Positions 3,160-3,916 of a DNA stretch of 4,122 bases are shown one piece after another. The translations under genes were made by a program, and so were the position numbers. The notes under the pieces were generated by a model. The model saw only the letters and a list, made by a program, of their open reading frames with translations, made no database searches and was not told the origin of the DNA. Numbering within the stretch: position 1 is the first letter of the stretch; each line of letters begins with the position of its first letter. This stretch comes from a virus (Duplodnaviria; Heunggongvirae; Uroviricota; Caudoviricetes). The DNA lies in the IMG/VR virus record IMGVR_UViG_2734482004_000012. One strand, 5' to 3'.

Positions 3160-3186
3160 AAAAAACAAAACCCGCCGAAGCGGGTT
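3160..3186 (-). terminator. Rho-independent terminator ending the hok transcript
   Basis: Minus-strand RNA reads AACCCGC-UUCG-GCGGGUU followed by UUGUUUUUU (plus stem 3169-3175 / 3180-3186, loop 3176-3179, A-rich 3160-3168). UUCG tetraloop, GC-rich stem, U tract. Confidence 0.55.
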
Positions 3187-3189
3187 ACG

Positions 3190-3205
3190 TGCGGGTGCGT
3201 TGAGG
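3190..3205 (-). promoter_or_regulatory. 3' fold-back (fbi-like) element of the hok mRNA, complementary to the 5' leader element at 3568-3582
   Basis: Plus 3190-3205 tgcgggtgcgttgagg is the reverse complement of plus 3568-3582 cctcaagcacccgca apart from one extra g. It lies immediately upstream of the terminator hairpin. Confidence 0.45.
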
Positions 3206-3254
3206 ATGCCTGACACATCAGAGGTGGCGAGGGATTTCTCCCTCGCCGGGTCTC

Positions 3255-3410
3255 TTACTCCTCAGGTTCGTAAACTGTGAAGACAGCGACCTCCGTCTGG
3301 CCGGTTCGGATTCGTACCTCGCAGAGGTCTTTCCTCGTTACCAGTGCCGTCACTATGACGGTTAAACAGATGACGATCAGGGCGATTAACATCGCCTTTT
3401 GCTGCTTCAT
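3255..3410 (-). CDS. hokD: Hok/Gef family type I toxin (51 aa), HokD/RelF-like
   Basis: Product MKQQKAMLIALIVICLTVIVTALVTRKDLCEVRIRTGQTEVAVFTVYEPEE has the single transmembrane helix and the conserved RKDLCEV...TGQTEVAVF core of the Hok/Gef family. It is near-identical to HokD/RelF as I remember it. SD AAGGAG 9 nt upstream of the ATG at 3408-3410. Confidence 0.85.
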   Translation of the reverse strand: MKQQKAMLIALIVICLTVIVTALVTRKDLCEVRIRTGQTEVAVFTVYEPEE

Positions 3411-3467
3411 AGCCTGCTTCTCCTTGCCTTTCGGCACGTAAGAGGCTAACCTAGATTTGCCGTTCAT
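3255..3467 (-). CDS. Mok-like in-frame leader ORF (70 aa) overlapping hok
   Basis: ATG at 3465-3467 with GAGG 8 nt upstream. The N-terminal extension MNGKSRLASYVPKGKEKQA is in frame with Hok. It resembles the MokC extension (...KVKEKRAMKQHKAM...) as I recall it. In hok-family loci, Mok translation is what allows Hok translation. Confidence 0.5.
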   Translation of the reverse strand: MNGKSRLASYVPKGKEKQAMKQQKAMLIALIVICLTVIVTALVTRKDLCEVRIRTGQTEVAVFTVYEPEE

Positions 3468-3567
3468 AGATTGAGCCTCAGATTAATGTTAAGCGTCTTG
3501 CAGGACGCGTAATATTAACTGGGGCTTTTCTCTATCTGCCTTTGGTGTTCATGCCTGAGGCAGATAG

Positions 3568-3582
3568 CCTCAAGCACCCGCA
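3568..3582 (-). promoter_or_regulatory. 5' leader (tac-like) element of the hok mRNA, complementary to 3190-3205
   Basis: See the paired element at 3190-3205. It is followed in the transcript by a 9-bp hairpin (plus 3532-3540 ctatctgcc / 3559-3567 ggcagatag). Confidence 0.45.
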
Positions 3583-3621
3583 GCAATTCTACTTAACTCC
3601 CGTCACCTCGCCAATATAAAA

Positions 3622-3711
3622 TCAATCAGAAAGGCGATCCATAAGAACAACAGCAAGACAATAAATTGCCATTACAGCCGCAATAGCTAGCGCACATTTG
3701 AGAACCAGCAC
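3622..3711 (-). CDS. Candidate small hydrophobic protein (29 aa, MLVLKCALAIAAVMAIYCLAVVLMDRLSD)
   Basis: Canonical SD AGGAGG (plus 3717-3722), 5-nt spacer, GTG start at 3709-3711, stop TGA at 3622-3624. 13 of 30 codons begin with G, a first-position bias typical of real coding frames, and the product is a single predicted transmembrane helix. Below the 60-aa threshold of the supplied ORF track. It conflicts with the alternative 96-aa frame 3626-3916. Confidence 0.3.
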   Translation of the reverse strand: MLVLKCALAIAAVMAIYCLAVVLMDRLSD

Positions 3712-3916
3712 GACAACCTCCTGTATTGGACGTACACCAGTTCTGATAAATATGAGGCTGTCTCATCATTGATTCAATATAACTATTGGGTATAGTTTCT
3801 GTGATTTTGTTCTGTAGAAATGGAACACAACAACCAGTCACCACCAGCACTTCTTTAAATACGCCAAGTCCGACGCAAGCTAACCTTCTAGTCCGCTTTG
3901 AGCGATCTGCAGACAT
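3626..3916 (-). CDS. Hypothetical Cys-rich 96-aa ORF (low confidence; alternative to the 29-aa ORF)
   Basis: Listed in the ORF track. SD is weak (GAAGG about 11 nt upstream). About 10 percent Cys and many rare codons (AGA, AGG, ATA, CTA, GGA). It overlaps the candidate promoters and the better-supported 29-codon frame. Confidence 0.15.
   Translation of the reverse strand: MSADRSKRTRRLACVGLGVFKEVLVVTGCCVPFLQNKITETIPNSYIESMMRQPHIYQNWCTSNTGGCRAGSQMCASYCGCNGNLLSCCCSYGSPF

Follow-up and report, generated by a model that had tools for sequence, protein, structure and literature searches.

Several described hok-type loci are close to the one reported here. The archetype is hok/sok of plasmid R1, for which post-segregational killing has been proven, and whose mRNA has been described to refold from an inactive into an active form (PMC9841398; PMC1635323). 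The hokW-mokW-sokW locus is found in the Stx2 phages 933W and Sakai prophage 5 (Sp5). In Sp5, hokW-sokW is a toxin-antitoxin (TA) system of type I that is toxic when induced and is repressed by sokW from its own promoter; HokW is made after mitomycin C in a RecA-dependent manner, and deletion of the locus halves phage release (PMC8621323). The Escherichia coli chromosome also carries hokC/mokC/sokC (gef), and K-12 has hokD (relF) in the relBEF operon of its Qin prophage. Here we analysed a stretch of 4,122 nucleotides (nt) from a tailed virus of the class Caudoviricetes (IMG/VR record IMGVR_UViG_2734482004_000012), referred to below as the window, whose minus strand holds a hok-type locus that spans from 3614, at a -35 hexamer, to about 3160, at the end of a T-tract. 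We read this region as an intact hokD/hokW-type hok/mok/sok type I TA cassette bounded by a promoter and a terminator of its own, with a probability of about 0.9. The element itself is already known, widely distributed and partly characterised.

The hokW-sokW locus has the same plan as the window: its mok, of 70 codons, shares the reading frame of a hok of 51 codons, and the antisense RNA has 71 nt. The two share 92.7% nucleotide identity over mRNA nt 1-397, a nearly identical Sok hairpin body, and identical -35 and -10 hexamers in front of sok. They differ at the C-terminus of the toxin (FTVYEPEE in the window, FVDYESEK in HokW) and in the sequence past the 3' element fbi, where the window has a canonical terminator hairpin. 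Their positions in the phage genome are also different: the window locus sits in a nin-like region upstream of Q, whereas hokW of 933W and Stx2 phage I lies among early-region open reading frames (ORFs), one of which is P22 EaA-like, and in Stx2 phage I it is a few kb from the attachment site. With hokC, whose mok is in frame with hok as in the window, the nucleotide identity is 74.6% over nt 1-349; this gene occupies a core-chromosome site, in contrast to the prophage site of the window, and in K-12 it has an IS186 in the 3' untranslated region (UTR), which removes fbi.

The hok ORF of the window has 51 codons, is of the HokD type, and lies at 3255-3410 on the minus strand, according to the ORF list and to Pfam. 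Its product matches HOK_GEF (PF01848) with 77.3 bits (cut-off 22) and has the character of a small Hok/Gef membrane peptide. The initial annotation of this DNA had taken the toxin to be essentially the HokD/RelF sequence and had suggested comparing the 51- and 70-residue products with known proteins. The comparison gave 50 of 51 identical residues with K-12 HokD (the change being A46V), 47/51 with HokW, 40/51 with HokC and only 22/51 with R1 Hok, in agreement with that identification; the NCBI Prokaryotic Genome Annotation Pipeline (PGAP) likewise names the product, WP_000813256.1, "toxin HokD". Codon 46 is Val (GTT) in the window and Ala (GCT) in most copies, and codon 47 (3269-3272, minus strand) reads TAC followed by G (UACG, inside UUUACGAAC).

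In frame with hok, and overlapping it from upstream, is a 70-codon mok ORF (3255-3467, minus strand; ORF list). Its product shares 62 of 70 residues with MokW and matches PHROG 251, "MokW-like host killing", with 110 bits, a family that PHROG classes under "moron, auxiliary metabolic gene and host takeover". The mok frame has its own Shine-Dalgarno sequence, a GAGG 8 nt 5' of the start, within a region that reads GAGGCU (mRNA nt 101-106; 3474-3479, minus strand). A second Shine-Dalgarno region, AAGGAGAAG (3417-3425, minus strand, also read from the sequence; GGAG at 3420-3423), belongs to hok and does not vary among the 71 distinct sequences, most of them at least 94% identical, that represent 80 IMG/VR loci in our comparison set. 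Both the Mok-like in-frame leader with its own Shine-Dalgarno sequence and the hok Shine-Dalgarno sequence, as first proposed, are thus present. The mok of R1 is in a different frame from its hok, whereas that of the window is in frame, like mokC and mokW.

For the mRNA, a consensus scan placed a promoter (TTGGCG-17 nt-TAGAAT, 9/12 matches) at 3586-3614 on the minus strand, and conservation across loci begins at about its -35 position. The predicted +1 lies about 7 nt past the promoter, at about 3579, and position 1 of the Rfam model falls there too. From the model start, the fold energy and the block conservation in the 71 loci, we delimited a full-length hok mRNA of about 418 nt (3162-3579, minus strand). 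At its end a terminator scan found an intrinsic terminator, AACCCGC-TTCG-GCGGGTT followed by a T-tract (3160-3186, minus strand), and conservation across loci stops here.

The leader matches Rfam RF01794 at full length on the hok-sense strand (3405-3579), with 113.3 bits against a gathering score of 59 (E = 3e-26, model positions 1-157); this is the covariance-model search for hok mRNA and Sok RNA that had been suggested for the locus. RF01794 carries the name "sok antitoxin", yet in every locus tested it matches the hok-sense strand and ends at the hok AUG. On that strand the controls scored 88.9 bits (R1-type hok), 118.3 bits (K-12 hokC) and 113.5 bits (933W hokW), while the true Sok strand of the window reached just 19.9 bits. 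Since the canonical loci also match on the hok-sense strand, the model describes the hok leader.

When folded in full, the 418-nt RNA reaches -175.4 kcal/mol, compared with -126 +/- 5.8 kcal/mol for shuffled sequences (z = -8.5), and none of 100 shuffles is as stable; an intact R1-type mRNA folded in the same way gives z = -8.3. In the predicted fold, the tac element at the 5' end, GGGUGCUUGAGG (nt 1-12; 3568-3579, minus strand), forms 12 pairs around one bulged C with the fbi element, CCUCAACGCACCC (nt 375-387; 3193-3205, minus strand), and these pairs appear in both the minimum-free-energy and the centroid structures. Among the 71 loci, tac is invariant with the exception of one sequence, and the bulged C is the sole common variable position in fbi. 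In the same predicted fold, the mok Shine-Dalgarno sequence is sequestered by ucb, an anti-Shine-Dalgarno box, AGCCCC (nt 54-59; 3521-3526, minus strand). In the folds of RNAs cut to nt 1-372, 1-365 and 1-360, tac pairs with ucb instead, and the mok Shine-Dalgarno sequence shifts from ucb to dcb, the box AGCCUC (nt 133-138; 3442-3447, minus strand), which pairs with it only in the 3'-truncated fold. At the same time a hairpin appears around the mok start codon (nt 108-132; 3448-3472, minus strand), with the loop ACGGCAAA, which is complementary to the 5' tail of Sok and constitutes the Sok target.

R1 has the same elements and the same predicted switch, from tac/fbi with ucb/SD-mok to tac/ucb with SD-mok/dcb (SD-mok being the mok Shine-Dalgarno sequence), and both loci match RF01794. 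The tac/fbi helix is GGCGCUU/AAGCGCC in R1 and GGGUGCUU/AA(C)GCACCC in the window; the two differ by a compensated exchange from C:G to U:A and by one additional G:C pair. The fold also predicts a 3' UTR hairpin, GGCGAGGGAGAAAUCCCUCGCC (3226-3247, minus strand), within a larger stem at nt 314-371; by analogy with R1, it is presumed to act as a road-block for 3' trimming (PMC1635323). The structured leader, the long-range complementarity of the 5' and 3' ends and the intrinsic terminator named in the initial annotation were all recovered, so that its list of parts stands, while its limits of 3160-3605 agree only approximately with the 3614-3160 given here. An Rfam match to isrK, a small RNA of the Salmonella Gifsy-1 prophage, at 3165-3246 (minus strand) was rejected at 27.8 bits, below the cut-off of 50; it covers the hok 3' UTR hairpin and the terminator and is probably a generic two-hairpin resemblance.

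On the plus strand, the sok promoter reads TTGCCT-17 nt-TAACCT (3424-3452) and is conserved at a level of at least 0.97 in the 71 loci. A Sok RNA of about 71 nt (3459-3529, plus strand), mapped from the sokW misc_RNA of 933W, consists of a 14-nt single-stranded 5' tail, a long hairpin and UUUU; its predicted fold is that of SokW, at -31.0 kcal/mol. At the level of predicted sequence and fold, the window thus encodes a cis antisense RNA with its own promoter, 5' tail and terminator hairpin, co-linear with the annotated sokW. The Sok of R1 has 64 nt with an 11-nt tail (PMC1635323). As we read primers YO-421/422, TAACCT appears to be the hexamer replaced by GAGCCG in the "pro-less" construct that Takada et al. 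made of the Sp5 locus, and this construct unleashed HokW toxicity (PMC8621323).

The locus is also conserved as a discrete unit. In the 71 distinct viral sequences, conservation is at least 0.9 between about -19 and +413 and still high over most of the -35 hexamer, while the flanks show values of about 0.4-0.6. Because these limits are sharp and the contexts varied, the unit is a promoter-to-terminator cassette, and its varied flanks are those of a phage "moron". Variable pairs in tac/fbi are few and, a single A-G cell aside, go from G-C to G-U; in the tac hairpin there are compensatory changes at 15:46 (A-U to G-C in 5 sequences) and 21:40 (C-G to U-A in 1). It could be argued that the pairings and the ORF arose in prophage DNA by chance, with no real RNA element behind them, for which only the general caution speaks that consensus scans and minimum-free-energy folds over-predict. 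Against it stand the covariance-model match (E = 3e-26), a fold (z = -8.5) that none of the 100 shuffles equals, the sharp cassette boundaries in many genomic contexts and the experimental validation of a 93%-identical locus. These computed results already exclude chance, to which we assign a vanishingly small probability.

K-12 hokD has reportedly been called a rearranged locus by Pedersen and Gerdes (in 1999). The K-12 copy matches window mRNA nt 156-418, which comprise the hok ORF, the 3' UTR, fbi and the terminator, at 98%, and its neighbourhood in Qin, with a ydfU/DUF968 gene and Q downstream, is like that of the window. It lacks the hok promoter, tac, ucb, the mok Shine-Dalgarno sequence and start codon, the Sok target and sok, all of which the window has. 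The homology begins 14 nt before the hok ATG, and relE, which ends 71 nt before this ATG, takes the place of the leader and of sok; the statement in the initial annotation that K-12 hokD is considered to lack regulatory elements of its own was therefore accurate. So was its statement that no relE or relB lies upstream in the window. The genes were found neither in the window nor within 6 kb in UTI89 or 4 kb in ATCC 11775, which are among the complete genomes with an identical locus and in which the upstream genes are hypothetical, and tblastn of K-12 RelE, RelB and Rem against the window, 12.5 kb of UTI89 and 8.5 kb of ATCC 11775 gave chance matches only (E > 0.5). The K-12-type relBEF arrangement, with relE about 71 nt upstream and neither leader nor sok, is thus not that of the window.

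These data also bear on whether the window locus could have arisen by decay, with loss of relBE, from an operon like relBEF of K-12 or from a longer locus. The one point in favour of such decay is the 98% identity to K-12 hokD over the hok ORF and 3' UTR. Against it, a hok leader of full length, matched by RF01794 from position 1 of the model, occupies the 155 nt upstream of the point where homology to K-12 breaks off. No relB or relE similarity remains in the window or in the 12.5 kb of UTI89, and no hok leader trace was found upstream of relB within 10 kb in K-12 Qin. The missing trace rules out a simple insertion of relBE into a complete K-12 locus and makes K-12 a replacement or chimera, not a clean insertion. 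In addition, an Enterobacter hormaechei plasmid (positions 1-455 of our comparison locus L097) carries relB-relE and the 71-nt spacer with 91% identity to K-12 up to the hok ATG, followed by an R1-type hok. With relBE and spacer found before a different hok, the K-12 relBEF looks like a derived chimera, apparently joined inside the conserved hok Shine-Dalgarno/ATG stretch. PMC6379469, which cites Ramisetty and Santhosh (2016), agrees that the K-12 copy is derived and states that relBE integration cut an ancestral 70-codon hokD to 51 codons. Altogether, decay from a relBEF-like ancestor is very improbable, and an intact cassette remains our reading of the window.

The complete form is the common form in E. 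coli and a standard accessory cassette of lambdoid prophages. A 501-nt query of the locus was found in 3849 of 5426 complete E. coli genomes at a coverage of at least 80%, and a 190-nt query of the leader alone in 4257 of them (78%), with a median of 2 and a maximum of 10 places per genome with any match; the relE-hokD junction of K-12 was found in 1166. Among IMG/VR viral contigs, at least 593 code for a close relative. The names used in phage records are MokW, HokD, host killer protein and "phage maintenance protein", with mokW/hokW/sokW annotated in the 933W record AF125520. Some phage records have the annotation "Mobile element protein" under the match; it belongs to a short ORF on the opposite strand, across the hok 3' UTR, and denotes no real mobile element.

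The initial annotation had proposed an autonomous toxin/antisense module in a lambdoid prophage, which is borne out by the full set of parts and the lack of relBE. It had also implied that a complete copy would be rare and unusual, and this finds no support in the genome counts, in the existing annotations in PGAP (hokD) and 933W (mokW/hokW/sokW), in the working TA system of the 93%-identical copy or in the published truncation of the K-12 copy. PGAP marks only the 51-codon hokD and leaves mok, Sok and the regulatory RNA unannotated, so a complete locus may look unusual to a reader who knows K-12 alone. It is rather the laboratory K-12 copy, fused to relBE, that is the oddity, and the textbook relBEF arrangement would be the derived chimera.

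How the window allele would be transcribed, processed at its 3' end, toxic and repressed, and what role it would have, we infer by homology with plasmid R1 hok/sok and Sp5 hokW-sokW. A stable 418-nt mRNA would be made from a weak constitutive promoter, with tac paired to the 3' fbi and the mok Shine-Dalgarno sequence hidden by ucb, and the full-length mRNA would for this reason escape both translation and Sok binding. As about 40-45 nt were slowly trimmed from the 3' end, fbi would be lost, upon which tac would pair with ucb and the mok start region would refold into the Sok-target hairpin. The short-lived 71-nt Sok RNA from the opposite strand would then pair through its 5' tail with the mok start region, blocking translation of mok and hence the coupled translation of hok, and the duplex would be destroyed. 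If Sok synthesis stopped, because the element was lost, transcription was shut off or the prophage was induced, production of Hok would follow and damage the inner membrane.

As to its biological role, prophages show an enrichment of hok genes, and a survey left their role there open (bioRxiv 2025.08.07.668861); K-12 HokD is toxic when overexpressed, according to the same work. By analogy with Sp5, the window cassette may help with lysis or release on induction, a role to which we give slightly less than even odds. Prophage addiction is a more tentative proposal. Exclusion of other phages seems unlikely; R1 hok/sok partly excludes phage T4, as cited in PMC8621323. We consider it quite improbable that the cassette has no selectable role. 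The cassette is oriented like the early operon and lies upstream of Q, so induced early transcription would cross it, converge on the sok promoter and need to pass the hok terminator to reach Q. Judging from this gene orientation, early transcription through the cassette could link Hok release to induction.

Several observations weigh against an intact and working cassette. Compared with the consensus, the sok -10 hexamer TAACCT (3447-3452) is weak, and the sok promoter falls under the threshold of a generic scan. The window loop at nt 117-124 (ACGGCAAA) has no YUNR U-turn in or beside it, in contrast to the hokW loop (CUGAACA), and the motif is present in the 933W, hokC and PPompW alleles. 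In R1, YUNR speeds Sok binding; it aids the kinetics and is no criterion of family membership (PMC6562991). Support from covariation is thin, as the comparison set is too closely related: the changes fit the structure, and few are compensatory. The prophage may be defective, given a 2-nt deletion in its Q gene. Finally, earlier studies summarised in bioRxiv 2025.08.07.668861 obtained no post-segregational killing with chromosomal hokA, hokB and hokC, so that completeness does not necessarily make a locus an addiction module.

Some of these points would fit a locus that is complete in sequence yet a biologically silent passenger, one whose loss does not kill and which leaves the phage life cycle unaffected, comparable to hokA, hokB and hokC with their lack of post-segregational killing. 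The missing YUNR, the Q frameshift in a possibly defective host prophage and the frequent interruption of hok loci by insertion sequence (IS) elements, a pattern that suggests tolerance of inactivation or even an advantage from it, all point this way. On the other hand, the regulatory parts are all intact and near-invariant over the 71 distinct viral copies, the locus is present in 78% of complete E. coli genomes at up to 10 places, and the close relative hokW-sokW is active and alters lysis and phage yield (PMC8621323). We therefore regard a silent passenger as unlikely, though it is a contender to be taken seriously, and we retain the reading of an intact type I TA cassette.

The genes of the window are all on the minus strand and correspond to the early-right part of a lambdoid prophage, where the cassette is located in the nin-like region between replication genes and the DUF968-rusA-Q genes. 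On this strand the end of a hypothetical gene, above 4028, comes first; it is followed by the hok locus, a PHROG 1212 gene of 92 codons, a DUF968/YdfU gene, rusA and a Q-type antiterminator gene. The 4.1 kb of the window are 99.9% identical to E. coli UTI89, whose copy is flanked by repressor and replication genes on one side and by a methyltransferase gene, tRNA genes and lysis genes on the other. At 2053-2062 the window has 10 N where UTI89 has 36 nt of the DUF968/YdfU-like gene; the gene therefore appears as two ORFs, and the run is probably due to masking or to a gap in the assembly. At 1110-1111, a 2-nt (TA) deletion relative to UTI89 breaks the 273-codon Q-type antiterminator gene, annotated as intact in ATCC 11775 and UTI89, into ORFs of 103 and 175 codons, which makes it either a real pseudogene or the product of a sequencing error.

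Four of the comparison loci that we fetched (L093, L094, L010 and L006) are cut by IS elements, namely IS150, ISKpn28, IS421 and IS186, with the sites in the leader or the 3' UTR and never in the hok ORF. For the R1-type comparison, the first two loci were IS-cut in the leader, and the third, intact one was used.

Upstream of hok there is an unannotated 29-codon hydrophobic ORF, MLVLKCALAIAAVMAIYCLAVVLMDRLSD (3622-3711, minus strand), with a GGAGG 5 nt before its GTG start and its end 42 nt short of the hok +1. About 33 of the 80 viral hok loci have it intact, and one of these (L080) has a 34-codon version that is 54% identical and has its own AAGGAGG site. Many other loci have a different 27-codon membrane ORF (MTWPEAF...YSICRWG), which ends 41 nt before the hok +1. 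The region of the 29-codon ORF occurs in 1328 of the 5426 E. coli genomes and is unannotated in all rows sampled, and its product has no significant match in Pfam, NCBIfam or PHROG. Conserved and unannotated, a membrane ORF of 27-34 codons, whose end often lies about 41-42 nt ahead of the hok start, might also belong to the cassette. A 96-codon ORF at 3626-3916 was discarded as spurious, since no family matches it and the 29-codon ORF, for which the support is better, overlaps it in a different frame.

The Sok 5' tail and its target (3459-3472, plus strand, and 3448-3472, minus strand) are the most variable part of an otherwise near-invariant leader, whereas the hairpin body of Sok and the sok promoter hardly vary. 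For example, the tail is GCCGUUCAUAGAUU in the window and GUUCAGCAUGGAUU in SokW, differing at 7 of 14 positions, and at least 5 Sok-tail classes were seen among hokD-type loci. We offer as a speculative idea, less probable than not by a wide measure, that hokD-type loci fall into several Sok-specificity classes, that the class of the window has lost the YUNR loop, and that the small upstream ORF possibly belongs to the cassette. If such classes were orthogonal, each co-resident prophage, with up to 10 copies in a genome, would be guarded by its own non-cross-reacting TA pair. Two viral loci of one source genome (L048 and L083) carry different Sok-tail classes.

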